64,000 nt of DNA from Nitrososphaeria archaeon (GCA_041862235.1 JBGVSY010000015.1:11866-75865); one strand, 5' to 3'; counted from the first letter of the stretch, positions 11,483-63,652 are shown. Made by a program: numbers and translations. Notes: generated by a model from the sequence alone, not told the origin.

Positions 11483-13486
11483 CTAGGTTTTTCGTGTCAA
11501 TCTTCTACTTGCTTCCCACCAATGTGGGAAAAGCTCCTTCTTTCCCGGCAAAACGAAGGCTGCTAGATACTCATCCATAAAATCCATGTCCTGCAACATA
11601 TCAAAGTAGGTGGTTAGTTCCGCTATTTCCTCTGCTTTCTTTCTGTAGTCCAATGAGACGAGAGCTAGGTAGGCACCGGCGGCGGAACCGTTTCCCAGTA
11701 TGAGGTGCTTTGCATTCGGAAACTCTGGGAGCAGACCGATTGCCACAGCGCTATTTAGGTCGAGAAAGCTCCCGAAGGCTCCACAGACATAGACATTCTT
11801 GATGTCTTCGACGGTTAGCCTCATTTTCTTGATCAAGACGGATATTGCTCCGCAGGCCGAAGCTTTTGAATCCATCAGTATGTCCACGTCTTTTTGGGTT
11901 ATGACGATATCCTGTCCTATGCTTGTTTCTCGGGACGGGGAAACAACGTATTCCAACCCGTCCGATCCTTTTCTTACAAATGGTGGAGGTAGGTTGCCAT
12001 GTATCTTGCCGAAGGAATCGAGGATTCCCACACGGAACATCTCAGCCATCGCGTCTATCAAGCCGGAGCCGCAGATGCCTTTGGGCTTGGCTGAGCCTAT
12101 CAATGTGTAGCTTGCCTTGAGGGTTTCAGGGTCTATCTTGATGCGTTCAATGGCGCCTTCGACAGATCTTGTCCCGAACTTGATGCCCCATCCTTCAAAG
12201 GCTGGACCAGCGGCAGCTGAAGTTGAAAGAAGCCATCCTTGGCTACCAAGTATAACCTCAGCGTTGGTTCCTATGTCGATCAACAGGGATATGTCCTGTG
12301 ATTCATGCATTCGAGAGAGAAGAATATCTCCCACCGCGTCTCCTCCAAGAAATCTGCTCACGCACGGGAGGAAGTGAACCATTGCCCATGGATTCACATC
12401 TACTCCGAGCATTTTTGATTCCATCTTGATCGAATGCTTCGGAACGAAAGCGTTGACGTGCAGCAGGGGAGCGGAATCCATGCCTGCAAACAGGTACGAC
12501 ATCACAGTGTTTCCTGCAACGGTGACATCGATGATCTCACGTGGGTGGACCTGGTTCCTTTGAGACAGTGTTCGAATCAATTGATTGACTGTGTTTACGG
12601 CAGCTTCTTGAACCTCTCTTGTACCATATACTTGGTCGACTGTAAACCCAATCCTGGAAACTACATCTTCTCCGTACATCAGTTGTTTGTTGTAATCTGA
12701 GGCTACATCCAAGATTTCTCCCGTCACCAGATTCACCAAGTAGGCGACGATCTTCGTCGTGCCTATGTCGACGGCCAGGCCGAAGTTTCTACTGGATCGA
12801 TCACCGAGTTCAAGATCAACGAGTTCAATTGAGTCCGCCTTCTTTCTCACGGTCACGGTCAACCCCCTTCCGAATTGACCAGATAATTCTTTCAATCTTG
12901 AGGAGATGAAGGGAGAAAAGATCACCTCTCCTCTGCCAGAATACCGAGATCGGAGGAAACCCGATATCTTGGCTTCGAGGTCGACGTCGGTTATGGCTCG
13001 ACTCAAGAACTGGGGGTCTAGGTACTCCCTTGATACGCTTGGATTAGGTTTAACTTTGAATATCTGTGCTTTCGAGAGTATCTGCTGTCCCTCTATTCTA
13101 CTTTCCGGGGGTATGAGGACTTCGCAGTCGCTGAGACAACGGGTTTGACACGCCAAGACGTATCCTCTTGAAAGTTCCTCATCTGATAGAAGTTTCTCGC
13201 CCCTAGGAACTCTAAAGTCGATGTTCCCGTTCTTGACGATCGCTCTGCATTTTCCGCAGATACCTTTGCCACCACAGACGTTTCTGATGGTTATTCCCGC
13301 AGTTCGAGAGGCCTCCAAAACAGTTTCCGCCCTATCGATACGAACCCTTCTTCCAATCGGCTGAAATGTTATTGTGACATCTGTTTTGGACAGCTTCTCT
13401 GGACACCAACTCCTCGGCTTCGTCGCCCCGTATATATCTGTTGGCGGGGCAATAGGATAGATATACTGTCTACGGTGAATCGGCAA
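11483..13486 (-). CDS. Corrinoid activation/regeneration protein (RACo-type: 2Fe-2S ferredoxin plus ASKHA ATPase, DUF4445)
   Basis: 667 aa. The N-terminal plant-type ferredoxin motif is CGGKGICGKCR, and a long ASKHA-like domain follows (DIGTTKIV..., IDIGTNAEV...). It is convergent on the cdh operon. Confidence 0.8.
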   Translation of the reverse strand: MPIHRRQYIYPIAPPTDIYGATKPRSWCPEKLSKTDVTITFQPIGRRVRIDRAETVLEASRTAGITIRNVCGGKGICGKCRAIVKNGNIDFRVPRGEKLLSDEELSRGYVLACQTRCLSDCEVLIPPESRIEGQQILSKAQIFKVKPNPSVSREYLDPQFLSRAITDVDLEAKISGFLRSRYSGRGEVIFSPFISSRLKELSGQFGRGLTVTVRKKADSIELVDLELGDRSSRNFGLAVDIGTTKIVAYLVNLVTGEILDVASDYNKQLMYGEDVVSRIGFTVDQVYGTREVQEAAVNTVNQLIRTLSQRNQVHPREIIDVTVAGNTVMSYLFAGMDSAPLLHVNAFVPKHSIKMESKMLGVDVNPWAMVHFLPCVSRFLGGDAVGDILLSRMHESQDISLLIDIGTNAEVILGSQGWLLSTSAAAGPAFEGWGIKFGTRSVEGAIERIKIDPETLKASYTLIGSAKPKGICGSGLIDAMAEMFRVGILDSFGKIHGNLPPPFVRKGSDGLEYVVSPSRETSIGQDIVITQKDVDILMDSKASACGAISVLIKKMRLTVEDIKNVYVCGAFGSFLDLNSAVAIGLLPEFPNAKHLILGNGSAAGAYLALVSLDYRKKAEEIAELTTYFDMLQDMDFMDEYLAAFVLPGKKELFPHWWEASRRLTRKT

Positions 13487-13520
13487 GACTCCGTGTTGAA
13501 CTCGAATGTCAGCTATGGGT

Positions 13521-13700
13521 TCACTCCCGAGCTAGGTCGACGCGCTCCTTCTCCACAGAGACTCGAACGAGATGGCAATTCGGGAGACGTTTCTCAACAC
13601 CCAGAATGTCGCGCAATAGAACCACACTTCCAGAGACCTCTACGAAGATCACGTCCTCAGCTAGCTGTTCATCGTCCAGAAAAACCTTGAATTCACACAA
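13521..13700 (-). CDS. cooT: CooT-like small nickel-binding CODH accessory protein (not in the supplied ORF track)
   Basis: My translation gives a 59-codon ORF: (TTG)M-CEFKVFLDDEQLAEDVIFVEVSGSVVLLRDILGVEKRLPNCHLVRVSVEKERVDLARE*. The N-terminal Met-Cys and the overall pattern match my memory of the CooT family. An in-frame TGA two codons upstream leaves TTG as the only start. It lies 35 nt upstream of the RACo gene on the same strand. Confidence 0.65.
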   Translation of the reverse strand: MCEFKVFLDDEQLAEDVIFVEVSGSVVLLRDILGVEKRLPNCHLVRVSVEKERVDLARE

Positions 13701-13802
13701 GCTCTGTCACTGGTGCGCAGCCATGCCGACATAAGAACCTAGCTACGAGAGCATACTTATCTTGAAGCCGATTTCACCACGTGGCGGAGACACCTGAAGT
13801 CC

Positions 13803-15494: not shown

Positions 15495-15724
15495 TGCTGG
15501 CTCGTAGCAAGCGAGCCCTGATCGAGATGAGCGAGACCGAAGAGGAGCCACGAATTTACTACCAGTGCATGTACTGCAGAAAGGTCTTTGAAAGGGAGAA
15601 GTTGTCCAAGGTAGCCGAGACTCGATGTCCGTACTGCGGCTTCAACGTGATCAAGAAGACGCGAGGAGGGAGGACGAAACTAGTCAAGACCTCGGAGCTC
15701 ACAAAGGAAGAATCATTGGAGTAG
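15494..15724 (+). CDS. rpoP: DNA-directed RNA polymerase subunit Rpo12 (RpoP), zinc ribbon
   Basis: YYQCMYCRKVFEREKLSKVAETRCPYCGFNVIKKTR matches the archaeal RpoP pattern Y-x-C-x2-C...RCPYCG. ATG 15494 overlaps the upstream stop (TAATG). An alternative start is ATG 15527. Confidence 0.7.
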   Translation: MLARSKRALIEMSETEEEPRIYYQCMYCRKVFEREKLSKVAETRCPYCGFNVIKKTRGGRTKLVKTSELTKEESLE

Positions 15725-15870
15725 CTGACCGATTTTCCCGGAAGAGCCATAGGCCCGGCGGCACACCTGAAAGATCGATTGATTCCCGTGTCGATCGATG
15801 TCCGCCGACCAGCTGAAAACACTTATCTTGACTTCACGTCAATCGACTATACGGAGCTCGATAGGCTGAG

Positions 15871-16665
15871 ATGCTTTCTATAGGCTTGGGTCAGGTGCCT
15901 GGGCTAGACTGGTTACTCGATTTTGTCGGAAGGCAGACGCTTATCGACGCTCTCATCGCTCTCTTGGTGTTCTTGGTTACATACGTCACGGCGGCTGTGT
16001 ATAGTCGTGGTCTATCCAAGATCTCCCCAAAGATCAGCAAGACTCGATCCCGCAAAGGTGAGCTGCTAGGAGTGATTGTGATATGGATGATTGGTCTGGG
16101 GATCTTGATGACTTATTTCCGAGTTCCTCCATCGCAAGCCGTACTTCTATACGCTGTTGCCCTGGGAGGGCTCATCGTGGCCTTCCGAGACGTGCTCACC
16201 TCCATTGCTGCCAAGAAGATGCTCGACGAATCAGGCGCCATGAAGGTGGGGGACCTAGTCAGGATCGGGAAGTACTATGGAAAGGTGGAGAAGATAGGTT
16301 CTCTCTACACGACTATGATTACCCCCAACTTCCTTGAGGTTCACATACCAAATAGCGAGCTGCTAAAACATGAGATCGAGAACGAGAGCCAGTCGGCGAC
16401 GACGCTCATGAGCATTCCGATCACAGTAAATGCAAACGAGCTGAACATGAATGATGTGAAGCTGCTTATGATGAAGGCGGCGAGGATCGCCAAGAGGGAA
16501 CTGGCGCCGGGGAAGGTCACGGAGATAAGGTTTCTTAACATCTCGGGCAACCTGGTCACGCTGGAGCTACGCCTTCACATATTGAACCCCGCCAAACGCG
16601 ACGCCTTAGCCTCACTGATTAGGGAGAAGATATACCAGAAGCTTCAAGAGATTGGACGAAACTAG
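15871..16665 (+). CDS. Small-conductance mechanosensitive channel (MscS family)
   Basis: 264 aa with three N-terminal TM helices followed by the MscS beta-domain signature VGDLVRIGKYYGKVEKIGSLYTTMITPNFLEVHIPNSEL. Confidence 0.75.
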   Translation: MLSIGLGQVPGLDWLLDFVGRQTLIDALIALLVFLVTYVTAAVYSRGLSKISPKISKTRSRKGELLGVIVIWMIGLGILMTYFRVPPSQAVLLYAVALGGLIVAFRDVLTSIAAKKMLDESGAMKVGDLVRIGKYYGKVEKIGSLYTTMITPNFLEVHIPNSELLKHEIENESQSATTLMSIPITVNANELNMNDVKLLMMKAARIAKRELAPGKVTEIRFLNISGNLVTLELRLHILNPAKRDALASLIREKIYQKLQEIGRN

Positions 16666-18761: not shown

Positions 18762-18839
18762 AAGATTTCGGTTATGATCGATCAAACTACTCTCAGAAAC
18801 ACTTATTGAACTCCTCATTCATCCGCTCAACGATTCTGC

Positions 18840-27607: not shown

Positions 27608-27804
27608 AGCCCGATTCTGTCCGGCCCTCTAGGGTGGCAGAGGTGGGCTAAAGTGTTTTGCACAATTGGTCGCTTTGAAAACGTCATAGCCTGGGTGTAA
27701 CTAGAAGTCTGAGCTGAATCTCTCCTTTTCTCAGTCGATCGAATAGACATAGACCTGCTTGGAATTCGGGTTCGTTTCCTGAAATCGACTAACGTAGAGC
27801 TTGG

Positions 27805-28794: not shown

Positions 28795-29300
28795 AGGCAA
28801 TCCTCTTGGGCGCTACGAAGCGTGAGAGATTGGAGAGGATGCTCAAGTTACAGTACGGGATCGATTGCAGGTTGCCCTCCACCCTCATCCAATCCGGGGC
28901 GGGAAAGATTCGCATCGCTACGCCGGAAGCCTTTGAAGCTGCTCAGTTGCTTCGAGGGGTACATTCAGTCGGACTGTATGTGGTCAAGGTCGTTGATGGA
29001 ACGCCGGTACTTTCTATTGAGGGAACGCATCTCTTCTGCAGGGAGATACGGCAGAATGTCATGGAACTCTCACATGAACAATCTGACGCTTGGATGTCAG
29101 CGTCACCCGTTCAGTTAAAGACACACACGGCGTCGAAGTACGTGGCCGCCAGGAGCGGGCCGGACTGTTTGGGGTGTGGGCGGACATCTGGACCTAAGGT
29201 CTTTCCGTACGTGCCACGGTGGAGGAGAATAGTTCCCCAATCCAGGTTTGAAGTCGGGGGCCCCCAGAGAAAGGCAGACGGGGAAGACAACTATATTTAG
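28791..29300 (+). CDS. RsmF/Trm4 C-terminal PUA-like domain encoded as a separate ORF
   Basis: 169 aa. The GTG start overlaps the methyltransferase stop (GTGA). The pattern ...VHSVGLYVVKVVDGTPVLSIEG...MELSHEQSDAWMS...YVAARSGPDCLGCGRTSGPKVFPYVPRWRR resembles the C-terminal domains that are fused in RsmF-type enzymes. Confidence 0.4.
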   Translation: MKAILLGATKRERLERMLKLQYGIDCRLPSTLIQSGAGKIRIATPEAFEAAQLLRGVHSVGLYVVKVVDGTPVLSIEGTHLFCREIRQNVMELSHEQSDAWMSASPVQLKTHTASKYVAARSGPDCLGCGRTSGPKVFPYVPRWRRIVPQSRFEVGGPQRKADGEDNYI

Positions 29301-29310
29301 CACGATCAAT

Positions 29311-29320
29311 CGATCGATCG
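29311..29320. repeat. CGATCGATCG palindrome, 1 nt upstream of the AMP phosphorylase ATG
   Basis: Read directly from ...caatCGATCGATCGcATG... Confidence 0.9.
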
Positions 29321-29321
29321 C

Positions 29322-30833
29322 ATGAGCTTCATCGCGAAGACAATCGAGATACACACGGATCGAAGAGTTATAGTCCTCAACGAAAAGGACGCCGTCAGAC
29401 TTGCTTTAAAGGAGAGTGATAGGGTCAAGGTGTACTGCGGAGGCAGGGCTGCTTCGGCGATCCTCAGTGTTTCTTCCAAGCTAGTAGCTGAAGGGGAAGC
29501 TGGTGTATTTGACACGTTGAACGACGCGCTTGAAGTCAGAGATGGAGACCGGGTTGAACTCAAGATTTCTGAAGCGCCTAAGTCTGTGCAGTTCGTCAAG
29601 AAGAAGATGATGGATGGCGTGACGTTGACCAAGGATGAAATAAGATCAATAGTCGAAGACATCGTGAGCCTTGACCTCAGCGACCTAGAGATGGCGGCCT
29701 TTGTGATGTCTCAACACTTTCGGGGAATGAACATGGATGAGGCTGAGGCCTTGACGAGATCCATGGTGGAGACGGGTGGGACCATAGATTTCGAAAGGCC
29801 TGTATATGATAAGCACAGCGTGGGCGGCGTACCTGGGAACAAGGTGAGTTTGCTGATCGTCCCGATGGTTGCCGCGGCCGGCCTCTTCATTCCAAAGCTT
29901 TCCAGCCATGCCATAACGTCCCCGAGCGGCACAGCGGACACGATGCAGGTGCTTGCCAACGTTGACTTCTCCGTCGAGGAGTTCAAGGAAGCGGCGATGA
30001 AGGCAGGGGGAGCCATCGCCGCGTCAACTGGAATGAACATCTCTCCAGCAGACGACATCCTAATAAGACGTGTTGAGCATCCCCTGGGCGTTGATCCTGT
30101 GAGCCAGATGGCTGCCAGCATAATGTCGAAGAAGCTGGCGGTTGGCGCGAAGTTCTTGCTACTGGATATCCCTGCAGGGAAGGAGGCGAAGGTGGAGAGT
30201 GAGGAGGAGGCTCGCAGCCTAGCCTCGATGTTCATCGAGTTGGGGCGGAGAACTGGGATGAGGATCGCTTGCGGAATAACTTTCGGAGGAGCTCCGGTGG
30301 GACATGCCGTCGGCTCTGCTCTCGAGGCCCGCGAGGCGCTTCTGGCACTCGCCGGAAAAGCCGCGTCAACCAGCTTGGTTGAGAAGTCAACTGCTCTGAC
30401 TGGAATGATGTTTGAAATGGCTGGAGTAGCCTCCCAAGGTCAGGGCAAGGAGATGGCGGAGGCCACAATTCGAAGCGGAAAGGCTCTGGCCAAGATGCGG
30501 GATATAATCGCGGCTCAGGGCGGCGATCCCAACATCCGGCCAGAGGATATCCCTGTTGGGTCGCATATCGCCGAGGTGAAGGCACGGTCCACTGGATATG
30601 TTACTAGGGTCAGCAACGCTGCACTTGTGGAAATAGCGAGAGCCGCGGGTGCACCAGTGGAGAAAGGAGCAGGCTTCGAGATAGAGGGTAAGGTAGGTCA
30701 CTTCGTTAAGAAAGGCGATGTCATTTTGAGGATATATGCCGAAAGAGAGTCCAAGTTGGAGGCCGCACATAGCCTGGCACTCCATACCGAGCCCATACTC
30801 ATAGAAGGGATGCTCCTACACAGGGTTCCTTGA
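29322..30833 (+). CDS. deoA: AMP phosphorylase (thymidine phosphorylase family II with N-terminal extension)
   Basis: 503 aa. Motifs are HSVGGVPGNKVSLLIVPMVAAAG and TSPSGTADTM. The length and N-terminal ~80-aa domain are typical of archaeal AMPpase. Confidence 0.8.
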   Translation: MSFIAKTIEIHTDRRVIVLNEKDAVRLALKESDRVKVYCGGRAASAILSVSSKLVAEGEAGVFDTLNDALEVRDGDRVELKISEAPKSVQFVKKKMMDGVTLTKDEIRSIVEDIVSLDLSDLEMAAFVMSQHFRGMNMDEAEALTRSMVETGGTIDFERPVYDKHSVGGVPGNKVSLLIVPMVAAAGLFIPKLSSHAITSPSGTADTMQVLANVDFSVEEFKEAAMKAGGAIAASTGMNISPADDILIRRVEHPLGVDPVSQMAASIMSKKLAVGAKFLLLDIPAGKEAKVESEEEARSLASMFIELGRRTGMRIACGITFGGAPVGHAVGSALEAREALLALAGKAASTSLVEKSTALTGMMFEMAGVASQGQGKEMAEATIRSGKALAKMRDIIAAQGGDPNIRPEDIPVGSHIAEVKARSTGYVTRVSNAALVEIARAAGAPVEKGAGFEIEGKVGHFVKKGDVILRIYAERESKLEAAHSLALHTEPILIEGMLLHRVP

Positions 30834-31021: not shown

Positions 31022-31936
31022 ATGATCCCAGACGAAATTGCGGTCTATCTCAAGCCTTCTGGAAGGATACTTGAGGCTGAAGTTGACTACGGAGACGCGA
31101 GATACGTCGTCTTCGGCATACCTTACGATCTTACGAGTAGCTTCCGCCACGGCTCCAGATTCGCTCCGAGAGCTGTTAGAGAAGCGTCCACCTACATCGA
31201 GGTCTACAGCACCAGAGCCAGTTTTGATGCTTCAAACCTCAAGATAGCTGACCTTGGAGACTTGGCTTGCGTCTATGGTTTGCCGACTATGCTGAGGAGA
31301 GTAAAGGCCGTAGTTGGTAGGATCGCCAGAGACAAGAAGATTCCAGTAATGATCGGGGGAGAGCACACCTTCACGTACAGCGCAGTCGAGGCACTTGGAA
31401 GAGACACGGCACTGGTCTCTTTCGACGCACACATGGACCTGAGACCGGAATACCTTGGCGATGCTTGGAGTCACGCAACTGTTATGAGGAGAATAGCAGA
31501 GAGAATAGATCCCCAAAAGATCGTAATCGTTGGACCTAGAGCATTCACACCCGAGGAGCGACGTTTTGCACAGCATAAGGGGATGAGCTTGATCTACTCG
31601 TGGGAGATCACATCAGACCTGGAGGAATCCAAGAGGAGGCTGCTGGACGCGCTTTCCTCCGCGGAAAGGATCTACCTGACACTCGATATGGATGTTCTGG
31701 ACATTCCATTCGCACCAGGGGTGGGTAACCCAGAACCCGAAGGTATCAACTCGAGCCAGCTCTACGACCTTCTATCAGTAGTAAGTGACCGGAGACTTGT
31801 CGGGTTTGACATAGCTGAAGTGTGTCCGCCATATGACCATGGGCAGGCTGCTGTGCATGCAGCGAAGGCTCTCGTGGAGGTGCTCGCGCACCTGGAAATA
31901 AGCACCGATCACTCGATCGGTGATCATGCTGAATGA
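31022..31936 (+). CDS. speB: Agmatinase (arginase/ureohydrolase family)
   Basis: Metal-binding motifs are GGEHTFTYS, FDAHMDLR and LTLDMDVLDIPFAPGVGNPEPEG. I prefer ATG 31022 to the track start at 30953. Confidence 0.8.
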   Translation: MIPDEIAVYLKPSGRILEAEVDYGDARYVVFGIPYDLTSSFRHGSRFAPRAVREASTYIEVYSTRASFDASNLKIADLGDLACVYGLPTMLRRVKAVVGRIARDKKIPVMIGGEHTFTYSAVEALGRDTALVSFDAHMDLRPEYLGDAWSHATVMRRIAERIDPQKIVIVGPRAFTPEERRFAQHKGMSLIYSWEITSDLEESKRRLLDALSSAERIYLTLDMDVLDIPFAPGVGNPEPEGINSSQLYDLLSVVSDRRLVGFDIAEVCPPYDHGQAAVHAAKALVEVLAHLEISTDHSIGDHAE

Positions 31937-32307
31937 TCAAGAGCGTTGCTATCTAGCGTCGATCAGGAGGAGCATCAAGCTGGAAACGGCCAACGTTGTG
32001 GCCGCCAGGTTTGCTATAGCAACAGCTGCATTCCACCTCAATGATCGATCGATTAGTTTGTCCAGTCGCTTCGCATACCTATGGTCCAGCCAACCTGAAG
32101 CCGCCATAATCCTCTGCTCGATCGCGAGGTTCGCATCAGCAAGTTTTGAATTCTGCAGGGGTATTCCCAAGAATCTTTTGAGCGATCATGGTGACCTCCA
32201 TTTCATCGTAGGTCTCAGACAAAGATTGTGCCGATCGATCAATCGCCAGGCACGCATCTTTCATACGGTGACTCGGGTGATAGGATTGATAGATCGAGGC
32301 GTGATCG

Positions 32308-36291: not shown

Positions 36292-36450
36292 CAGGAATAC
36301 TTTTGCGCGCGAAGGCTATCAACCATTACCCAAGCATCATAGCTTGCATGGCCGGAAGTCCGACGGTCTATTGGTCGCCCGGCAGAAAAAGATGGGTGAC
36401 CAACCAACGGGGGAGTTCAACCCCTTCACGTTGATTGATCTGTTTTTTCT

Positions 36451-36549
36451 CTACTTCTTCTTTCTCTTGCTCTTCTTGGCGGGTTTTTTCTTAACCGCTC
36501 TCTTTCTCTTCTTTGGTGCTTTCTTCTTTGCTGATTTCTTTCTGGGCAT
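36451..36549 (-). CDS. 32-aa extremely Lys/Arg-rich micro-protein (not in the supplied ORF track)
   Basis: My translation is MPRKKSAKKKAPKKRKRAVKKKPAKKSKRKKK*, which has 17 Lys, 4 Arg and no acidic residue. The ATG is preceded by GGAGGT with a 6-nt spacer. It is the only plausible gene in an intergenic stretch of nearly 700 bp. The sense-strand alternative is a poly-Phe/Leu ORF. Confidence 0.45.
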   Translation of the reverse strand: MPRKKSAKKKAPKKRKRAVKKKPAKKSKRKKK

Positions 36550-36982
36550 GTGTTTACCTCCGCACTACAGGTCTTTTTCTCGTTTTTTGTGCAGTGCTTG
36601 CAGCTTTTAAGATTTGTGGTTCAGCATTTGTCGAAGCAATCGCGTGATTAAGGGTAAGGATTCGGTTGAATCACTGAGTTGGCTTCGAGCAAATGGGAGG
36701 TGGATTTTGATCCAGCTGGCCACGAGTTCCTTCTGAAGAATTGTCACTTCGTCTCAGCGATTGCAGGAGGAATCTGGAATATCTTTAATGATGTTTTTGT
36801 CACCCTGAATCAAAGTCTTCTGACCACGTCAAGGGGAATGTCGGCTGAAATATGACTGGATCGTTGTGGGTTTTCATACCTTGCTCGAAGATATTCAGCT
36901 TGGATTGATCGCGATCGATCAGCCAGTGAAGATCACTCACGTTTCCAACTCTTCGCTGAGCACCAATCTTAAAGAGAGGTTG

Positions 36983-37951: not shown

Positions 37952-38677
37952 TTGAGACAAACCCAGCTTGGGTTGCGGCTGTGGAAAGTAGGGTAAATGC
38001 GAGGCCGATCGATCAGGAAGACGTAGAAGTAGGCTGGAGGGAGGGGCGAGATCGTACACACAGTCAGGAGCAACGGCCAATGCGCTTCGTTCTTCAGGCG
38101 TTGCAAGAGTTTTGGATAAGAACAGACTATTTTACCGGTATCTCCTTTTCCAGCCATCTTTTGGGCGCCGTAATCTCGTGCACTATGGCATTGAAGGCCG
38201 CTCTCGTCTTATCTGGATCTACGGCGCAAGGTAGCTTTAGGGTGAGACGATACTCGGAGCGGCGCGTCTCGCCCAATCTGAAGCCAGGGCCGGCTCTGAC
38301 GATCGACCGAATCTCTCTGACATTCTCTGACATCTCCTAGAGACATACCGGAGATAGCTCGATCGATCCTTGCTCTTCCACATCGGATCCATCAACCGCT
38401 GCGTCCTCCTAATGAGGTCTCTCATATGTATCTTAACCTCATCGGCGGTCTCGAAAAGAGGAGACACATCCACCTCAAATCCTAGAATCCTTCCCGCAAA
38501 CCGTAGAAGATCGATCGAAGATGACCTCGGACTCTTGCTCGCAATCCAGTCGATCAACTCAGATATAAACGGGCCTCAGCACAGAAATTGGTATCGGAGT
38601 TTCCGAGAAAAATGCCACGAAGTCAGTCTTCGCGTACAGCCTCATCAACTCCTTGATGCCGCTCTCGTGAACCGCAA

Positions 38678-38689
38678 TCGATCGATCGA
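38678..38689. repeat. TCGATCGATCGA 12-nt palindrome in the unassigned 37.95-38.74 kb region
   Basis: Read directly. It is one of five GATCGATC copies within about 700 bp. Confidence 0.9.
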
Positions 38690-38739
38690 GCAGTCAAATA
38701 CTGGAAGCGCAGCCAGCGGCATTGTTGGACAAAAAGAAT

Positions 38740-38889
38740 CTATCTGGGAAATTCACGTCTGTAGTGAGGACATTCAACATTACTGCAATGCAAGACTGAT
38801 GAACATCCAGCACATGAGAACACTCGCGAGTAACTAATGTCAAAAGTCCTCCCACAGGAAAGACAGGTCACCAGCCTGCTATTTGACAT
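38740..38889 (-). CDS. Possible 49-aa C4 zinc-ribbon protein
   Basis: MSNSRLVTCLSCGRTFDISYSRVFSCAGCSSVLHCSNVECPHYRREFPR* contains C-x2-C-x14-C-x2-C. It is co-oriented downstream of the ATP-grasp/membrane gene pair. There is no convincing SD site. Confidence 0.3.
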   Translation of the reverse strand: MSNSRLVTCLSCGRTFDISYSRVFSCAGCSSVLHCSNVECPHYRREFPR

Positions 38890-38938
38890 TCTTTGTGGAT
38901 CTGAATGACAGCGGCATTCATCGCTATGTCCCAGTTTC

Positions 38939-41051: not shown

Positions 41052-41061
41052 CGATCGATCG
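41052..41061. repeat. CGATCGATCG palindrome in the divergent ATP-grasp / DUF99 intergenic region
   Basis: Read directly. It lies 12-21 nt upstream of the minus-strand ATG at 41040. Confidence 0.9.
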
Positions 41062-41138
41062 AGTTTGGAGCTGTAGTTTTCTCCTCAGTTGGCAGAGAGC
41101 TTTAAGTCTCTGAGATGAGGCTTGTATCTGGATTTTGG

Positions 41139-41771
41139 ATGCGGCTGCACCTGGGAAAGAAGGGTCTGCGTGTTCTCGGGGTGGCTGAAAGCTTTGTACG
41201 TGAGAAGAGCGATCGAGCTGCTTTGGCCGGAGTGGTGATGAGGACGGATGGAGTCATCGATGGTTTTTCGCTGGGTTCTTGCCGTGTAGGTGGAATGGAT
41301 TCCACCGAAAACATCATTCGGATGTTTCGAGATTTGGGAAGAGAAGACATCAATGCCCTCATGCTCAACGGATGCGTCATAAGCTGGTTCAACGTTGTCG
41401 ATCTGAATGTACTTCATGAATCCATTGGCTTACCGACGACGTGTGTGACGTATGATGCTTCTGAAGGACTCAAGAAGTACTTCGAAGAATACTTTCCGCA
41501 CGACTGGGAGCGCAGATACTTCGTATACCAAAGAAACGGAGCGAGAACAAGGGTCAAGCTTAGGACCGGATACCCGATCTTCCTGCGGTGTTTCGGAATG
41601 GAGGTGGAGGAAGGGCTCGGTTTGGTGAATAGGTTCACTGTTCACGGGAAGATACCTGAACCCATAAGGCTCTCAAAGTCGCTGGCTCACTGTTTCTTTA
41701 GAACGTTCTCCACTGCGAGATGGGAGTCGCACTGCCTCCAAAATAACAAGGATGGAGCGCAAGATGCCTAA
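41139..41771 (+). CDS. UPF0215/DUF99 family protein (EndoV-like fold)
   Basis: LRVLGVAESF...ALAGVVMRTDGVIDGFSLGSCRVGGMDSTENIIRMF...INALMLNGCVISWFNVVD is typical of DUF99. Confidence 0.6.
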   Translation: MRLHLGKKGLRVLGVAESFVREKSDRAALAGVVMRTDGVIDGFSLGSCRVGGMDSTENIIRMFRDLGREDINALMLNGCVISWFNVVDLNVLHESIGLPTTCVTYDASEGLKKYFEEYFPHDWERRYFVYQRNGARTRVKLRTGYPIFLRCFGMEVEEGLGLVNRFTVHGKIPEPIRLSKSLAHCFFRTFSTARWESHCLQNNKDGAQDA

Positions 41772-41958
41772 GAGCACAGCTGTGATCGATCGTCTTCTTG
41801 GCCCTCTAGATGAAGACCAATTGACGTGTTGGACCGATCGATCTTGGGCATATAAGCCCCCACTGTGGCAATGATTCAGCTAAAAATGTCAGCCTTCTTC
41901 GCAACCCGCTGAAAAACGATAAATCCCTTAGAATTCTCGATGGCTGGTGGAGTCGAGT

Positions 41959-49958: not shown

Positions 49959-50086
49959 GCGTACGATCGATCCGCCAACTGTAAGTAGAGACTGGAGGGT
50001 TCGCTCCGATCATTACTCGATCAATCGAGATCATCGCGCGGGCGAATCTACGCTCGGCTGCTCACCCTTCTAGGTTAATCGATACT

Positions 50087-53128: not shown

Positions 53129-53229
53129 CTCCTAACCCCACGGGTCGATAGAGAGATCAGTCGATCGACCCAAGCAAAAAGTTAAGAACAGGGAAAGAGG
53201 CGAATACCTACAATCAAGGGGACAAACAA

Positions 53230-54842: not shown

Positions 54843-54854
54843 GCGATCGATCGC
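54843..54854. repeat. GCGATCGATCGC 12-nt perfect palindrome between the cysteine synthase-like gene and tRNA-Val
   Basis: Read directly. It contains the cyanobacterial HIP1 core GCGATCGC interrupted by a duplicated ATCG. Confidence 0.9.
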
Positions 54855-57734: not shown

Positions 57735-58331
57735 ATGGAGACTCCGTTGGACCTGTTCTGCCTGAGAAGCGGGACCTTCTGCCCGCAGTGCGAGGCGAAA
57801 ATCAGGTCCGGGAAGGTCTCTCAGCTAGATGTCGATGTGACGAGGCTCCTTCTTGACCTGGAGCCGCAGTTTCCAGCGCTTCAAGACGCCACGTATATCA
57901 AGGCTGCCGAGACCGAAGATTTTTTGGCGGTGGTCCTCAAGGAGGGGGATCTCTCAAGGATGTCCGTCAATGTTCTTACGAAGCTAGCAAGGGGCCTGTC
58001 AGCTGCGATAGGAAAGAAAGTTAAGTTCCTAGAAGACTCATCGGATCCTACCAAGTTTCTTGAGTCCCTTGTTGCGCCAGCCAGGATCATCGCGGTGAAT
58101 CAAGTTTGGCTGCCAGATGGCTCCGTGGCTACGAGAATCATTCTTGATGACAAGAGGTCGTTGAGGATGAGCGAGAATTCCATTATCGAGTTGGGCAGCA
58201 AGATAAAGAACATGTCGCTTAGGATCGATTTCGAGAGGAAGAGGTTCTCCGCTCCCTCAGGAGGACGCGGGAGAGAAGCGGCTGTGAGAAGGTTCTCTCG
58301 TCGATCGATCGATCGTCGCCGCAGAGGCTAA
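57735..58331 (+). CDS. NusA-like double-KH protein with N-terminal zinc ribbon, degenerate GXXG loops and an Arg-rich tail
   Basis: The Zn ribbon is CLRSGTFCPQC. VVLKEGD...GKKVKFLEDSSDPTKFLESLVAPARIIAVNQV... parallels the NusA KH1-KH2 linker motif (DP..F..NAL.PA.V). No G-x-x-G is visible in either KH-like half. The tail reads GGRGREAAVRRFSRRSIDRRRRG. Confidence 0.5.
   Translation: METPLDLFCLRSGTFCPQCEAKIRSGKVSQLDVDVTRLLLDLEPQFPALQDATYIKAAETEDFLAVVLKEGDLSRMSVNVLTKLARGLSAAIGKKVKFLEDSSDPTKFLESLVAPARIIAVNQVWLPDGSVATRIILDDKRSLRMSENSIIELGSKIKNMSLRIDFERKRFSAPSGGRGREAAVRRFSRRSIDRRRRG
58302..58315. repeat. CGATCGATCGATCG 14-nt palindrome at the 3' end of the NusA-like gene
   Basis: Read directly. 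It encodes part of the RRSIDRRRR tail. Confidence 0.9.
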
Positions 58332-58514
58332 CATTGTTTGACCGTCCAACCTTGATGGTTTCGAAGGTCTTTCCCCTCATCTACTTTGCGCATTGAAGAC
58401 CTGGGTTGAAGTGGGAGGCAAGACAAATATGCGCCAATCGGGCTTCAGTCGTGGGCTGGGGGCGGTGGATTGACCTGTCCACTATTAACATTGAAGCTAA
58501 GCGTATGGCAGGAA

Positions 58515-58530
58515 TCGATCGGTCGATCGG
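58515..58530. repeat. Tandem TCGATCGG-TCGATCGG upstream of the glutaredoxin-like gene
   Basis: Read directly. It lies about 17 nt upstream of ATG 58547. Confidence 0.9.
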
Positions 58531-58546: not shown

Positions 58547-58822
58547 ATGAAAATCATAGTCTATGTCTCGTCTGGCTGCGGGCGTTGCCCCGCTACGATA
58601 AGAATGCTAAGAGAGCTCTTATCAGAAAGGAAGGTTTCCTATGAAGACGTAGTGGTCGAAAGGAACATTTCCGTTGACAGGGACGCTAAGGCCGATCTCA
58701 TGATGCTGAACATTCTCTCGACCCCCACAGTCCAGTCTAAGGACCTCGTTCTTCTCCCCGATGAGGCTACAGACAGGAAAAAGCTTAGAGAGTTGATAGA
58801 GAGAGCCTACTCCGCCGGCTGA
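58547..58822 (+). CDS. Glutaredoxin/NrdH-like small thioredoxin-fold protein
   Basis: MKIIVYVSSGCGRCPATIRML has a CxxC motif at the start of helix 1. The product is 91 aa, and GGTGGG lies upstream of the ATG. Confidence 0.65.
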   Translation: MKIIVYVSSGCGRCPATIRMLRELLSERKVSYEDVVVERNISVDRDAKADLMMLNILSTPTVQSKDLVLLPDEATDRKKLRELIERAYSAG

Positions 58823-58831
58823 CCTCATCAG

Positions 58832-60544: not shown

Positions 60545-60569
60545 AGAAATAACGTCGACCGTTTTCGAT

Positions 60570-61742
60570 GTGGCTGTTATCGGTGCAGGACCTGCTGGTC
60601 TCTCGGCAGCTAGGTCGGCTGCGAGAAAGGGGTTGAAGGTGATTGTTCTAGAGAAGAAGCGAGAGGTAGGTTTTCCCCTGAAGTGCGCAGGGTTCCTACC
60701 GTCCCCAACCGAGATGAAGAAGCTGCTTCCTGAGGCAGAGCGCTTCCTCGGGCTTCTCGACTTCGGCTCAGATGTCAGGGTTCATCAGTGCAGGGTGGTT
60801 GAAGCGGTCTTTCCTTCAGGCCGGAAGCTTTCCGCCAGGTTTGATGGTCAGGCCGTGGATCGCAGAGCACTGGAAAGGTCTCTCGCGCAGGAGACAGCAG
60901 AAGCAGGTGCAACCCTGTCGCTCAACTCGAGGGTGTGGAGGATTGAGGGCAGAACTATCAGCACAGTCGTGGAGGGTGAAGAAAGGAAGTTTGAAGCAAA
61001 GGTTGTGGTAGGCGCTGACGGAGCTCACTCCATAGTTGCCGCTCAATACGGAGAGAGGCACAGGCCTGAGCAACTGGCTTTCTGTTATGCACACGAGTAC
61101 TGCAACGCCGATATAGATCCTGACTGTGTCCAGATGTTCTTCGGCAGAGATTTTGCGCCAGGAGGCTTTGCCTGGCTTATTCCCCACGGCTTAGATCTCA
61201 TGAACTTGGGTATAGGGATCAGGGATAGGTATAGGAGAGCAGGTGATAGCTTGAACAGTCTTCGGCAGAGGTTTCTCTCTCTACCTCAGGTAGCGGTCTC
61301 AGTTAGGCGCGCTCAGCCGCTGGCGCGCATTGCAGCTCACGTTCCTATAGCGGGGCCCCGAAAGCGCACAGCCTTCAAGGATGCACTCCTCGTCGGAGAC
61401 GCAGCGGGACAGGTCCTGCCTCACGTCGGCTCAGGGGTGGCCACATCGATTATTGCAGGAGAAATCGCGGGCTCCGCCATCTACGAGTACCTTACCAACC
61501 GAAGCCCCCTTACCTCGTACGAGGCGGATTGGAGGCAGGTAATGGGTGGAGTCCTAGAGTCGTCTCTCAAGATCAGAGCCGTGCTGGAGAGGTTTGTGGA
61601 GAGAAACTGGCTGCTTAACCTCGTCCCTGACTTGATAGGGGAAGAAGCTTTCCTACAGTTACTCATGGCTCATGCACCTCAGGGGATCCATCAGCTGTTT
61701 TCGAGTATACTTTCGAACCGATCAAAAGGTTCTCCGTCATAG
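60570..61742 (+). CDS. Geranylgeranyl reductase family flavoprotein (digeranylgeranylglycerophospholipid reductase-like)
   Basis: The FAD motif is VAVIGAGPAGLSAARSAARKGLKVIVLEKK, with VVGADGAHS and LVGDAAGQV. The start is GTG. Confidence 0.75.
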   Translation: MAVIGAGPAGLSAARSAARKGLKVIVLEKKREVGFPLKCAGFLPSPTEMKKLLPEAERFLGLLDFGSDVRVHQCRVVEAVFPSGRKLSARFDGQAVDRRALERSLAQETAEAGATLSLNSRVWRIEGRTISTVVEGEERKFEAKVVVGADGAHSIVAAQYGERHRPEQLAFCYAHEYCNADIDPDCVQMFFGRDFAPGGFAWLIPHGLDLMNLGIGIRDRYRRAGDSLNSLRQRFLSLPQVAVSVRRAQPLARIAAHVPIAGPRKRTAFKDALLVGDAAGQVLPHVGSGVATSIIAGEIAGSAIYEYLTNRSPLTSYEADWRQVMGGVLESSLKIRAVLERFVERNWLLNLVPDLIGEEAFLQLLMAHAPQGIHQLFSSILSNRSKGSPS

Positions 61743-63106
61743 GCGAGTGCAGAAGAGCTCTTCATGAATTCTCGAAGAACAGAGGTCGCGTAGCCACCTC
61801 GAGAAACCTCCAGGTGAAGTGCTACAGTGCACGTTTCATTATCGTGAGTTGTCGATAGCATTTTGATGGCTGCGGCGCTCAAGCACACAGGTCTGTAGGC
61901 TCCCCGTGTTCCTGCCTCAGGTAAGCACGACGTGTTGAAGTCTTCGAGACTCACTTTTTCCTGATCGAGAATCCTGGCCATCAGCTCGCCCTTAGGTCCT
62001 TTAGGGATCTCAACCTGGTATCCGGGGACCGGCAGCACCACGGCCAGTCTACCCTTCACCAATCTTTCGCGAATGTTTTGTATGTTGTACTGGTTGACGT
62101 TCAAGAACTTTGGCTTTACTAGGCCGCAAAAGTCTGTCTCGGCAACCAAGTCTCCTGGAACGGGGTCATTCAGAAGATCTCCTGTTGACAGCAACTCGGA
62201 AAGAGTCTGGTTGAATACATAGGAGCTGTAGGACTGGACCAACAGTTTCCTCAGACGTAGAGGAAAGGCTCGGACTGCCTCTAAATAGTCCTCCTTCCGT
62301 CTGTCAAGAGAAGCCAGGATTCTTCTCTCGTATTCCAACTGAGGCGGCAACTGATCCGGGGCACCTCCTCGACTCCACTGAGTCTGCACCTTCTCTCGAG
62401 CGAGCCTTGTTTCCAGCACCTCAAGTCTGGAGTGGGAAGTGACGAAAGTCTTGACCGCATCATGTAGTCTCCCCTTCACTATCAATCTCCCCACGACATG
62501 GTTTATGGGCCTTCTTACACCGAATCTCTGGTGGCCGAAGAAGTTCGGGATTCCTGTAGCTCTCAGCAAGGCTAGGGTCTCAGTGACCATCTCTGCCGCG
62601 CGCTCAGGAGAATGCTTCACACCTCTTATCCTCACCTTGAACTCGTTTCGAGCTAACATGTGTGGGAAGACAGGTCTAGACACACGCTTAACCGGGATCA
62701 ACCTTGCGTTGCGCAGAATGATTTTACGGACGCTCTCAGCGGCCTCCCGAAACTTGAGTGGTATCGTTACGAACTGCGTGGTGACTGCCCGCTTGTCCTT
62801 TAGACCACACACACCAATTGACGCTGGCCCGACGCCAATTGCAGCAGCTATTCCCGACAGGCAAAGAAGTGTATCTCTGTTCCTTTTCTCCAATACACAG
62901 AGAATTTGGGTACCTGCACCCGGCATTATATGCGGCGGAACAAGAAAATCATTTGACTTCATGCCGTTGGAAAGAACCTCGTCAACAACAAAGTCATCCA
63001 CATGAAGCTTAATGACTCCACCGATTCCTGGAGTACTGGAGGCCCAGCCACGAATGCCTATGAACTCCTCAACCTCCCCGCCCCCGATCTCCTCCAAAGA
63101 CTTCAT
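61691..63106 (-). CDS. truD: tRNA pseudouridine synthase TruD/Pus7 family
   Basis: The catalytic motif is CGLKDKRAVTTQFVT, with NFFGHQRFG. The 3' end overlaps the convergent GGR gene by 52 nt. Confidence 0.8.
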   Translation of the reverse strand: MKSLEEIGGGEVEEFIGIRGWASSTPGIGGVIKLHVDDFVVDEVLSNGMKSNDFLVPPHIMPGAGTQILCVLEKRNRDTLLCLSGIAAAIGVGPASIGVCGLKDKRAVTTQFVTIPLKFREAAESVRKIILRNARLIPVKRVSRPVFPHMLARNEFKVRIRGVKHSPERAAEMVTETLALLRATGIPNFFGHQRFGVRRPINHVVGRLIVKGRLHDAVKTFVTSHSRLEVLETRLAREKVQTQWSRGGAPDQLPPQLEYERRILASLDRRKEDYLEAVRAFPLRLRKLLVQSYSSYVFNQTLSELLSTGDLLNDPVPGDLVAETDFCGLVKPKFLNVNQYNIQNIRERLVKGRLAVVLPVPGYQVEIPKGPKGELMARILDQEKVSLEDFNTSCLPEAGTRGAYRPVCLSAAAIKMLSTTHDNETCTVALHLEVSRGGYATSVLREFMKSSSALAYDGEPFDRFESILENS

Positions 63107-63118
63107 CTCTACGCTCTC

Positions 63119-63508
63119 CTAGAGTAGGGCAATCGACCCGGTCACCCGATCCACCAAGTCGGAAGGACCAGGACCTATCCCAAGAGCAGTCAGCGTGCCG
63201 GGCAGAACCTCTGTTAATCCCATGTCCTTCACCATCGCAGTGGGCAACCCCAGCTTTCTAGCCCTCATCTCCAAGGCCTTCAGTTCGTTCAGAGACTCCA
63301 CCCTCAACACAATCTTACGCTGTTCAATCTGCAGCCATCGCTTTGCCCAGGTCGGCTTGTGTTTGCGGCATTTCTCAAGCGCCGACACTGAGGCGTGTGC
63401 TACTTGTGCTGAGGTCTTGCCCACACTCATTCCTAGGTCGACCCTGACCGCGACGACTTGTTTGAAGTCAAATGATCGAATCAAATTCCCCGCCCAAAGG
63501 AGAACCAC
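63119..63508 (-). CDS. pth2: Peptidyl-tRNA hydrolase, archaeal Pth2 type
   Basis: KQVVAVRVDLGMSVGKTSAQVAHAS and ...VKDMGLTEVLPGTLTALGIGP. Confidence 0.85.
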   Translation of the reverse strand: MVLLWAGNLIRSFDFKQVVAVRVDLGMSVGKTSAQVAHASVSALEKCRKHKPTWAKRWLQIEQRKIVLRVESLNELKALEMRARKLGLPTAMVKDMGLTEVLPGTLTALGIGPGPSDLVDRVTGSIALL

Positions 63509-63652
63509 GGTGTATAAGCCTTAAGCATGCTTGGTCAGCAAGATTCTACCCCACCCTTTTGGATCTGCTGAACTCCCGGCTCAACCGGACGTCGATCTTA
63601 ATAGAGACGGTCAAAATGGGGCGGGAGATCGATCGGCTCTCCTCTTAGGAGA

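Follow-up and report, generated by a model that had tools for sequence, protein, structure and literature searches.

Short GATC tracts in non-coding DNA of an uncultured archaeon and their link to indel junctions

Distribution of the palindrome in the window

The window (the whole 64-kb stretch of DNA analysed) comes from an uncultured archaeon with the NCBI label "Aigarchaeota". Gene calls were based on Pfam and on public gene calls for near-identical contigs; 57.8 kb is coding and ~6.2 kb non-coding or unassigned. The palindrome GATCGATC has 18 matches at 17 loci (58303 and 58307 overlap) and is the top-ranking 8-mer by frequency in the window. Dinucleotide-preserving shuffles average 2.03 matches and never exceed 5, and the expectation under the Markov-3 background suggested in the first-pass annotation is 5.0. 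The over-representation claimed there is thus confirmed, all 17 listed loci being exact. CGATCG is observed 42 times against 21.5 expected. The related sites are present at 15792, 27736, 32796, 39685, 53162 and 58516/58524, as are the extended palindromes GCGATCGATCGC (54843–54854), TCGATCGATCGA (38678–38689) and CGATCGATCGATCG (58302–58315). The inverted repeat CACCGATC-ACTC-GATCGGTG is real, and lies at 31903–31922, 10 nt to the left of the position originally given.

The individual tracts, unstranded throughout, are listed below together with their state in contigs of relatives; L085, L096 and L097 represent one congener, species A.

12795–12802: GATCGATC inside the RACo gene (11483–13486, minus strand), a bare 8-mer in the linker that joins the Fer2 domain to RACo-middle; this coding copy is probably due to chance
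15791–15799: TCGATCGAT, a one-and-a-half-unit tract in a 376-nt spacer
18776–18783: GATCGATC in a 78-nt spacer, 15 nt past an NAD-synthase-like stop and 57 nt ahead of an asparaginase-family gene
27735–27742: TCGATCGA in a 197-nt spacer before an RsmF-like gene
29303–29320: tract CGATCAATCGATCGATCG, filling most of the 21-nt spacer between a TATA-like box ACTATATTTAG and the AMP phosphorylase ATG (29322); in L083 and L084 the spacer is unrelated and longer by 17 and 13 nt, respectively
32043–32053: GATCGATCGAT within a 268-nt segment (31964–32231) missing from L084
32232–32245: CGATCGATCAATCG, 62 nt past an RsmB-like stop, bounding on its right side the 268-nt indel that separates the window from L084
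36433–36440: GATTGATC, a C-to-T variant; a 31-nt within-species deletion in L082 has one end directly beside it
36903–36920: GATTGATCGCGATCGATC upstream of a histone-deacetylase-family gene (start at or after 36926), with 2–4-nt indel differences in L085 and L086
38006–38014: CGATCGATC in a 987-nt unassigned region, kept in L085 and L086
38300–38368: two copies 60 nt apart, CGATCGAC (perfect in L086) and TCGATCGATC; precisely the DNA between them is gone in L085
38509–38518: GATCGATCGA; a 106–107-nt segment of L085 and L086 is absent from the window within ~12 nt of this tract
38677–38689: ATCGATCGATCGA, exceeding its counterparts in L085 and L086 by exactly 4 nt; that of L086 is ATCGATCGA, with a single GATC
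41052–41062: CGATCGATCGA in a divergent spacer ahead of the ATP-grasp ATG (41040, minus strand); L086 shares it, whereas L085 has a same-length unrelated patch and L087 a shorter sequence
41784–41843: two copies, at 41784 and 41836, downstream of the Endo_dU gene; window positions 41711–41891 are missing from L086, which has GGGATCGATCG at the junction
49964–49972: CGATCGATC past a stop, between convergent genes; GATCGCTC in L085 and L096; in L086, ~140–165 extra nt split around a GATCGG
50017–50028: decayed tract TCGATCAATCGA; TCGATCGA in L086, 4 nt shorter
53160–53169: GTCGATCGAC in the spacer preceding the gene for ribosomal protein P1; also conserved in species A
54843–54854: GCGATCGATCGC, ~64 nt upstream of a PALP-enzyme start (54781, minus strand); TCGATCGCGATCGA with a 5-nt indel in species A
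58301–58315: TCGATCGATCGATCG in the last codons of a NusA-like KH gene (57735–58331), conserved in species A; in L098 a point change shortens the called protein (190 vs 198 aa)
58514–58529: ATCGATCGGTCGATCG upstream of a thioredoxin-like start (58547); 4 nt shorter in species A, perfect and abutted by a 59-nt insertion in L098
63627–63635: GATCGATCG between the PTH2 start and the NusG/Spt5-like stop; GGTCGATCG in species A

The repeating unit of these very short tracts is the palindromic tetranucleotide GATC, present as (GATC)2 to (GATC)3.5 and often flanked by C and G. C occupies position −1 in 12 of 18 copies and G position +1 in 10 of 18, compared with ~35% for single GATC sites; no extended flank consensus beyond the 8–10-nt unit was found around the window copies. 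GATC, in its four phases, is the only one of the 256 tetramers to stand out as doubled in non-coding DNA (the same holds among the 16 palindromic ones), with 15, 12, 11 and 10 tandem doublings versus 3 for the runner-up, TTCT. The decayed form seen most often is the C4-to-T variant GATTGATC, with six non-coding and two coding occurrences. GATC itself occurs 466 times in the whole window, coding and non-coding DNA together, about as often as expected under a Markov-2 model; 388 of these sites are coding.

The non-coding DNA carries 15 copies of GATCGATC (2.4 per kb), with 0.27 (Markov-1) and 0.69 (Markov-2) expected, whereas the coding DNA carries three copies at two loci (0.05 per kb), approximately the chance level. 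The split between coding and non-coding sequence, proposed earlier as a check, thus gives a ~45-fold difference in density. As had been claimed, only two of the 17 loci lie in CDSs, namely the RACo inter-domain linker (12795) and the end of the NusA-like KH gene (58303/58307); the longest coding tract is the one in these final codons. Copies occur in 10 of the 34 spacers, with up to four in one dead region, and are found upstream of starts, downstream of stops and between convergent genes. The distances reported before starts (2 nt from the ATG at 29312, 12 nt at 41053 and 17 nt for the 58514–58529 tract) and after stops (6 nt at 49965, 18 nt at 63627) hold.

Turnover among relatives and association with indels

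Every covered site is identical in same-species contigs from at least eight independent samples. No tract length polymorphism was seen among these samples, so the underlying process is slow or episodic. The first-pass annotation had suggested a comparison with sister genomes: the trait is common to congeners at 75–94% nucleotide identity (enriched in L083–L087 and L098) and was not found in family-level relatives. Tract copy number differs several-fold among the congeners.

In relatives that are 91–94% identical, 6 of 19 sites are retained, compared with a fraction of 0.31–0.36 for control non-coding 8-mers. The tracts evolve no slower than other non-coding DNA and turn over neutrally; hence their abundance must be continually replenished. 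Private new sites occur in L083, L084, L087, L098 and L086, the last having six in 14.6 kb. Species A retains four loci in ~33 kb, all of them inherited and none private, and has lost most copies, as if the generating activity had been lost.

Of the 17 unique non-coding indels of at least 4 nt that distinguish the window from its congeners, 13 or 14 fall within or immediately next to a (GATC)n tract. Some of these are +4 steps, some remove the DNA separating two tracts, and others are deletions whose junction carries a tract. In an automated test, 10 of 21 indels of at least 10 nt had the exact motif within 10 nt of an edge, versus 10.5% of random non-coding positions. Clean +4 changes on a single ancestral GATC are seen at 38677 and 50020, and further 4-nt changes at 58523 and 36911. 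The L085 junction left by the deletion between two copies, CTCTGAC-GATC|GATC-CTTGC, matches the product expected from two filled-in cuts. The new L086 site at 36666 is obtained if the lone GATC at window position 36709 gains 4 nt and the DNA immediately to either side is then deleted. Because the sequence gained or lost next to tracts is unique and belongs to no repeat family, the events are deletions rather than mobile insertions. Point changes converting near-motifs to motifs or back (41836, 49965, 63627, 38301) make up about half of the differences between relatives. Several new tracts also appear where relatives have no single GATC at that spot (L083 at 30941, window 29312 and the 41053 patch). 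The position of tracts at indel junctions and their changes by 4-nt units, which are the decisive feature, had not been foreseen by the first-pass annotation.

Proposed cutting and rejoining at GATC

We tentatively prefer to read the tracts not as conserved binding sites but as scars and continuing hot spots of lineage-specific cutting at GATC/CGATCG, fill-in and rejoining, which survive only where frameshifts are harmless. From the observed distribution, neutral turnover rate, 4-nt steps and link to indel junctions we infer a nuclease, an overhang and fill-in joining. The putative nuclease would cut at GATC (or C^GATCG), leaving a 4-nt 5' GATC overhang. If both ends were filled in and blunt-joined, the site would be doubled from GATC to GATCGATC with a gain of 4 nt, and a further cycle would give (GATC)3. 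Resection of one end before joining would produce a deletion beginning exactly at the tract, and joining of two sites would remove the intervening DNA. Tracts would then survive only in spacers, dead DNA and dispensable 3' gene tails, because a +4 step or an adjacent deletion breaks the reading frame.

We know of no report in which fill-in scars form a natural signature across a genome. In mycobacteria, restriction-made 5' overhangs are known to undergo templated fill-in when the ends are joined (PMC4176160), and the same fill-in chemistry makes GATCGATC the junction of DpnII/MboI Hi-C libraries. Such scars of bacterial NHEJ and Hi-C religation resemble the tracts in the tandem duplication of a 4-nt overhang, the addition of units in repeated cycles and the deletions that start from the cut site after resection. 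They differ in that here the nuclease and end-joining machinery are putative and several new tracts arise without a visible ancestral GATC, which counts against cutting. The Pfam search, which detected no nuclease, DNA methyltransferase, Ku or ligase D genes in the 64 kb, also counts against it. Moreover, coding GATC is not avoided, which would be unexpected if every GATC were often cut; the flanking C and G are not predicted by plain GATC cutting; and the point changes between near-motif and motif are explained equally well by a biased-repair ratchet or selection.

Of the functions proposed in the first-pass annotation, a restriction- or recombination-related site agrees best with tracts at indel junctions and changes by 4-nt units. 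Its description of an iterated palindrome is also supported, the trait being lineage-wide, while its operator or boundary element and REP-like element are not supported.

Other candidate origins

The closest known elements are the cyanobacterial HIP palindromes, and the HIP1-like character suggested earlier holds in that congeners are enriched and the CGATCG/GATC core is shared with HIP1 and its derivative TCGATCGA. By analogy, near-motifs might be perfected by the combined action of orphan GATC and/or CGATCG methyltransferases and a biased repair ratchet (Elhai's model), the resulting sites then acting throughout the genome in, for example, chromosome structure, strand discrimination, or recombination and DNA exchange. 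We regard this as somewhat unlikely. It accounts for the C...G flank preference, for the many single-base changes between species and for the C4-to-T decay to GATTGATC, expected from deamination of methylated C. HIP1 (GCGATCGC) and TCGATCGA, a known derivative (PMC4390886, PMC5861425), are likewise 8-nt palindromes; HIP1 is the commonest 8-mer of its genome, as GATCGATC is of the window, is likewise lineage-specific with enriched 1-nt variants, and has a proposed origin by mutational drive (PMC4390886). However, the tracts lack two defining HIP features: HIP1 shows conservation beyond that of control palindromes and is abundant inside genes (PMC5861425), whereas the archaeal tracts are conserved at the neutral control level, occur at chance in coding DNA and are ~45-fold denser outside it. 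A point-mutation ratchet explains neither the 4-nt steps nor why deletions cluster at tract edges, and the window yielded no DNA methyltransferase. The tracts differ further in having an archaeal host, a 4-nt period and changes by 4-nt units, and in marking indel junctions, which are not mentioned for HIP1 in PMC4390886 and PMC5861425.

It is unlikely that the tract serves as the recognition end for a transposase or site-specific recombinase whose gene lies elsewhere, i.e. a minimal non-autonomous element that the enzyme would move or copy, causing IS-like adjacent deletions from the exact edge of the tract. Deletions that begin at the tract edge, on one side or both, without damaging the tract itself, new tracts where relatives hold unrelated sequence, and the several-fold spread in copy number with one species lacking new copies would all fit. 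Yet there is no conserved sequence past 8–10 nt and no target duplication, clean insertions were not seen (new tracts nearly always accompany net DNA loss), the flanking DNA gained or lost is unique, and Pfam reveals no such gene in the window. REP/BIME elements with RAYT transposases and the very small cyanobacterial repeats are 20–40 nt long, have conserved flanks or loops and insert cleanly. The tracts are similarly short palindromes confined to intergenic DNA with copy numbers varying between relatives, but have an 8–10-nt unit and net deletions; the missing flank consensus and unique neighbouring DNA argue against a REP-like element. The DNA uptake sequences of Neisseria (DUS) and Pasteurellaceae (USS), also lineage-specific short motifs abundant through drive rather than site-by-site selection, are non-palindromic and common in genes. 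Uptake bias predicts no 4-nt steps, and we know of no competence system in this archaeal lineage.

A binding site for a dimeric global regulator, nucleoid protein or transcription boundary factor, selected in number and free in position within spacers, appears quite unlikely. The perfect 8–14-bp palindrome, the confinement to non-coding DNA and several copies between a TATA-like box and a start codon (29312, 41053, the 58514 tract) speak for it. Against it, copies are equally common just past stops and between convergent genes, occupy a minority of spacers while crowding one dead region, are conserved at orthologous positions no better than random 8-mers and were mostly lost, with none gained, in species A; the indel link is left unexplained.

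An ordinary tetranucleotide microsatellite growing and shrinking by replication slippage is very improbable. Changes of ±4 nt at 38677, 50020 and 58523 and tracts of up to 3.5 units are in line with slippage, but only one tetramer of 256 behaves so, two units are too few for efficient slippage, no length variation was seen among at least eight same-species samples, and slippage explains neither long tract-edge deletions nor de novo tracts.

Finally, although GATCGATC is identical to the ligation junction of DpnII/MboI/Sau3AI proximity-ligation libraries, a laboratory or assembly artefact is effectively refuted, since false junctions would mostly hit the coding GATC sites and break collinearity, and JGI, Logan and NCBI assemblies of at least eight different samples all show the sites, with positions unchanged, in collinear contigs.

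Abundance and placement of the palindrome

Genes were called from ORFs and Pfam matches; several starts were corrected, and two small ribosomal protein genes added, from public gene calls on near-identical contigs. The window carries archaeal markers (Alba, family-B DNA polymerase, PTH2, TruD, the CODH/ACS operon and RACo), and 6.2 kb of it (10%) is non-coding or unassigned DNA. The 8-mer palindrome GATCGATC occurs in 18 copies at 17 loci, the copies at 58303 and 58307 overlapping. All 17 positions given in the first-pass annotation, which was made from the sequence alone, were exact on recount, and the related sites listed there are present. The over-representation claimed there also holds: 5.0 copies are expected in the window under a Markov-3 model, and dinucleotide-preserving shuffles yield 2.0 on average and 5 at most (observed/expected ratio about 9). 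The palindrome is the top-ranked 8-mer of the window by count, and its shorter form CGATCG is found 42 times with about 21 expected. We found no earlier description in the literature of archaeal enrichment of GATCGATC or CGATCGATCG, or of over-represented archaeal palindromes.

In the window as a whole GATCGATC reaches about 280 copies per Mb, in its non-coding DNA about 2400. Its near-confinement to non-coding DNA was likewise confirmed: of the 18 copies, 15 lie in these 6.2 kb, at 2.4 per kb vs 0.05 per kb in genes, with 0.27 expected there under a Markov-1 and 0.69 under a Markov-2 model. The coding count is at about chance level for 58 kb of genes and comes from two loci: the RACo linker holds a bare 8-mer, and the final codons of the NusA-like KH gene a (GATC)3.5 tract. 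Some sites precede start codons, others follow stops or lie between convergent genes. They are distributed unevenly, with one non-coding site in the about 2.0 kb of spacers of 1–29000 and 14 in the about 4.2 kb of 29000–64000, a difference of borderline significance.

Among all 256 tetramers, including the 16 palindromic ones, only GATC and its three phase variants stand out by tandem doubling in non-coding DNA (15, 12, 11 and 10 copies; the next best, TTCT, has 3). Position −1 of GATCGATC is C in 12 of the 18 copies and position +1 is G in 10, compared with 33% and 37% at single non-coding GATC sites; beyond these two positions the 18 window copies show no flanking consensus. Scans of the whole window for Rfam families and tRNAs revealed no known RNA. 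The 20-nt inverted repeat CACCGATC-ACTC-GATCGGTG noted on first reading does exist, 10 nt to the left of the place first assigned to it: it occupies 31903–31922, the final codons of an arginase-family gene. The spacer after this gene has an unusual abundance of GATC, with about 12 sites counted by eye in 371 nt.

Relatives and turnover of sites

Contigs L081, L082 and L089–L095 belong to the same species as the window (99.2–99.9% nucleotide identity). They come from at least eight independent samples, include NCBI MAG GCA_041862275.1, keep every covered site and show no variation in tract length among these samples. Congeners with 91–94% identity are L083, L086, L098 (an NCBI MAG labelled "Aigarchaeota archaeon") and the contigs L085, L096 and L097 of a single species, referred to as species A; L084 and L087 are remoter (75–85%). 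The palindrome is also present in L083–L087 and L098, mainly in spacers; in L096 and L097 it is limited to the tail of the NusA-like gene. GCA_029880125.1 is the MAG of a motif-rich congener; species A is represented in SRR5248173, ERZ27275860 and JGI24422J19971, and the window species in many sequencing runs, SRR29975710, SRR31155648, SRR35494106 and SRR34261233 among them. The nearest GTDB species representatives (Nitrososphaeria or Aigarchaeota MAGs) are only about 60% identical in the histone-deacetylase-family protein, closer relatives being found in metagenomes, and none of the 80 loci from GTDB species representatives is enriched. Given this absence and the presence in L083–L087 and L098, the trait is roughly genus-level, and the proposal that the palindrome is iterated beyond the window is borne out lineage-wide.

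GATC itself, which occurs once per 137 nt in the window, is strongly depleted in some family-level relatives (loci L001, L030 and L034). This depletion suggests that GATC-targeting restriction is common around the lineage.

GATC sites at loci of other genomes
Ca. Benthortus locus: 8 sites in 19.8 kb
Nitrososphaeria MAG locus: 16 sites in 20.9 kb
Chloroflexia MAG locus: 0 sites in 10.2 kb

Window sites were conserved in 6 of 19 comparisons with the 91–94%-identical relatives (32%); in the same comparison all non-coding 8-mers gave 31–36% and coding 8-mers 58–62%. As the sites are conserved no better than the non-coding controls, their abundance must be continually replenished. The same test showed that the cyanobacterial highly iterated palindrome (HIP) HIP1 is kept by selection (Xu et al., PMC5861425), whereas the outcome here is the opposite, neutral turnover.

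New private sites were found in L083, L084, L086 (six), L087 and L098. L086 has nine loci in 14.6 kb, six of them private. Species A has four loci in about 33 kb, all common to the window and none private, and carries near-motifs at the other window sites (e.g. GATCGCTC, GGTCGATC and GATCGGTC). If private sites were proportional to length, by our arithmetic the split of 0 vs 6 would have P of about 0.001; the argument is weakened if the sites counted as "private" include older ones that were lost twice. In species A, the activity that generates the sites seems to be switched off. Point changes that convert a near-motif to the motif, or the reverse, make up about half of the differences between species; the C-to-T variant GATTGATC is found six times in non-coding and twice in coding DNA. 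With L084 and L087 as outgroups, most gains and losses could not be polarised, the non-coding DNA being too diverged at 75–85% identity.

Insertions and deletions at the tracts

When the window was compared with its congeners, 13–14 of the 17 unique non-coding indels of at least 4 nt were located within a (GATC)n tract or immediately next to one. In an automated test, the exact motif was within 10 nt of the edge in 10 of 21 indels of at least 10 nt, vs 10.5% of random non-coding positions. The automated test is conservative and undercounts relative to manual reading, since some junction tracts are broken up by gaps in the MAFFT alignments.

Differences at (GATC)n tracts (window positions)
38677: 4-nt unit step, ATCGATCGA in L086 vs ATCGATCGATCGA in the window
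50020, 58523 and 36911: further 4-nt unit steps
38300–38360: exact 60-nt loss between two copies in L085, junction CTCTGAC-GATC|GATC-CTTGC
38515: deletion from the tract edge in the window
36411: deletion from the tract edge in L082, beside GATTGATC
29312: deletion from the tract edge in the window
58509: deletion from the tract edge, a 59-nt difference in L098
32232: deletion from the tract edge, a 268-nt segment missing from L084
41711–41891: deletion with a tract at the junction, segment missing from L086, junction GGGATCGATCG
36666: deletion with a tract at the junction, about 57–68 nt missing from L086, junction CGCGATCGATC
49965: deletion with a tract at the junction, about 140–165 nt missing from the window and species A
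Histone-deacetylase-family gene to the next gene: deletion with a tract at the junction, about 1 kb missing from L087, junction TCGATCGATCGATCGA

An ancestral single GATC with a relative exactly 4 nt shorter is clean at 38677 and 50020. The tracts at 58523, 36911 and, in L086, 36666 are compatible with a 4-nt gain at a single GATC; this is not the case at 29312 in the window, at 30941 in L083 and at 41053 (a same-length patch). The DNA gained or lost beside tracts is unique and has no match elsewhere in the window or in L081–L095, so that MITEs and insertions were rejected as its source. Downstream of polB, at 36448–36534, there is a CT-rich 36-nt tandem repeat, where species A has a 12-nt indel unrelated to GATC tracts.

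Some of the changes reach genes. In L086 (9300–9345, window 41711–41891) the last 20 or so codons of the Endo_dU (PF01949) gene are gone together with the spacer; hence a tract-linked deletion reached into a gene and survived. In L098 (7297–7310, window 58301–58315) a G-to-A change within the (GATC)3.5 tract gives GATAGATC, and the tract-bearing tail of the NusA-like protein appears dispensable, as the protein is called at 190 aa there vs 198 aa. At 29290–29322 of the window, 21 nt separate the TATA-like box ACTATATTTAG from the ATG of AMP phosphorylase, and the corresponding distance is 17 nt longer in L083 and 13 nt longer in L084; the mRNA may be leaderless in the window species only.

The 987-nt stretch between convergent genes at 37952–38938 has no Pfam match and contains four exact tracts and several near-tracts. 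Its ORF frames differ among the window, L085 and L086, and it is missing entirely from L087. Most likely the stretch is dead DNA, such as a pseudogene in decay. Deleting one GATC per site did not restore an ORF (the best was 170 aa, within the range of random controls), and a larger repeat or origin-like structure at 36.3–39.0 kb was rejected, as nothing but the tracts recurs there.

Possible origin of the tracts

The phenomenon is real, strong and lineage-wide, and its unexpected features are the link to indels and the neutral turnover. The absence of site conservation, the exclusion from genes and the tight link to indels together argue for a purely mutational origin of the palindrome. The best fit, which we favor tentatively and at somewhat less than even confidence, is a GATC-centred process of cutting, fill-in and rejoining. 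A cut 5' of the G would leave a 4-nt 5' GATC overhang; filled in and blunt-joined, it would double the site and add 4 nt, and further rounds would give (GATC)3. Resection of one end would produce a deletion beginning at the tract, and joining of two cut sites would remove the intervening DNA. The junction of the 60-nt loss in L085 is exactly the product expected from joining two cut sites, and one 4-nt gain at the single GATC of window position 36709, followed by deletions on both sides, would suffice to yield the L086 tract at 36666. A C^GATCG cutter would also account for the C...G flanks. Because 4-nt insertions and adjacent deletions break reading frames, tracts would persist only in spacers, in the 37952–38938 region and in the dispensable 3' tail of one gene. 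In the laboratory, fill-in and religation work by the same chemistry as such doubling. For end joining in mycobacteria, templated fill-in has been documented at restriction-made 5' overhangs (PMC4176160). This scheme postulates a nuclease, its overhang and a joining activity; in the 64-kb window neither a GATC- or CGATCG-specific nuclease nor an end-joining gene was found.

Several observations count against such scars. No avoidance of GATC is seen in genes, no ancestral GATC is visible for some of the new tracts (L083 at 30941, the window at 29312 and the same-length patch at 41053), about half of the species differences are point changes, and the tracts are not polymorphic within the species. 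We regard as possible, and somewhat more doubtful than the process itself, the fuller proposal that natural, ongoing cutting, fill-in and rejoining at GATC/CGATCG, or a minimal palindromic mobile site of equal effect, is the dominant source of indels in the non-coding DNA of the genus, leaves (GATC)n scars wherever tolerated and is off in one sister species.

Cyanobacterial HIPs are the closest known family, and the comparison with HIP1 made on first reading was reasonable. The tracts share the hyper-abundance of HIPs: GATCGATC is the top over-represented octameric palindrome, and its density is in the range of hundreds to thousands per Mb. Unlike HIPs, the archaeal tracts are not conserved above control octamers (PMC5861425) and are not abundant within ORFs, and for these two reasons we do not classify them as a HIP; they are of the iterated-palindrome kind, and their behavior points to a different, more tractable origin. 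A HIP-like ratchet of methylation and repair, as in Elhai's model (PMC4390886), would explain the point changes to the motif, the CGATCG core and the C-to-T excess of GATTGATC, but it leaves the 4-nt steps, the link to indels, the absence from genes and the neutral turnover unexplained and seems unlikely. HIP genomes encode methyltransferases for a part of the motif, GATC or CGATCG (PMC4390886); no DNA methyltransferase was found by Pfam in the 64-kb window. TCGATCGA is a known HIP1 derivative (PMC4390886, PMC5861425).

Deletions that preserve the tract and bursts in copy number could also result from a minimal site of a transposase or recombinase causing IS-like adjacent deletions; there are, however, no clean insertions, no target duplications and no such enzyme in the window, which makes this rather unlikely. 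The first-pass annotation had also suggested a REP-like element. Repeats of the REP/RAYT or MITE type were rejected, as there is no conserved sequence past the core and the unique segments gained or lost include no members of repeat families. A site for a regulator or a nucleoid protein, agreeing with the perfect palindrome and its restriction to non-coding DNA, is improbable by both position and conservation: the operator suggested initially does not agree with neutral turnover or with sites lying after stops and between convergent genes as well as before starts. A boundary element is equally at odds with the turnover, the indel link and the difference in copy number between species. Plain slippage would produce the observed 4-nt gains and losses, but it should not affect just one of the 256 tetramers while leaving no length variation within the species (at least eight samples), and we give it little credence. 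Since GATCGATC is the DpnII/MboI ligation junction of Hi-C libraries, a Hi-C or assembly artefact was considered; it can be practically dismissed, because many independent assemblies, the same-species contigs from at least eight samples, show identical sites. Because the tracts are identical to this ligation junction, junction-trimming software could misread them.

To our knowledge, iterated palindromes such as HIP1 have had no explanation for 30 years. End joining in archaea is poorly understood, and most archaea lack Ku. If the tracts are indeed scars of cutting and rejoining, they would provide the first genome-wide trace of end joining from any archaeal lineage and would demonstrate that one site-specific process is able to dominate the evolution of intergenic DNA. 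Comparing the motif-rich with the motif-poor sister species would then be a direct way of finding the responsible gene, and, if the fuller proposal holds, the genus would be a natural system in which to look for an unknown archaeal break and end-joining activity.

Apart from the tracts, at 3739–13486 a complete CODH/ACS cluster (cdhA-E-like genes and two CooC-type ATPases) adjoins the RACo corrinoid activator; this implies that an archaeon labelled Aigarchaeota has a pathway of the Wood-Ljungdahl type.
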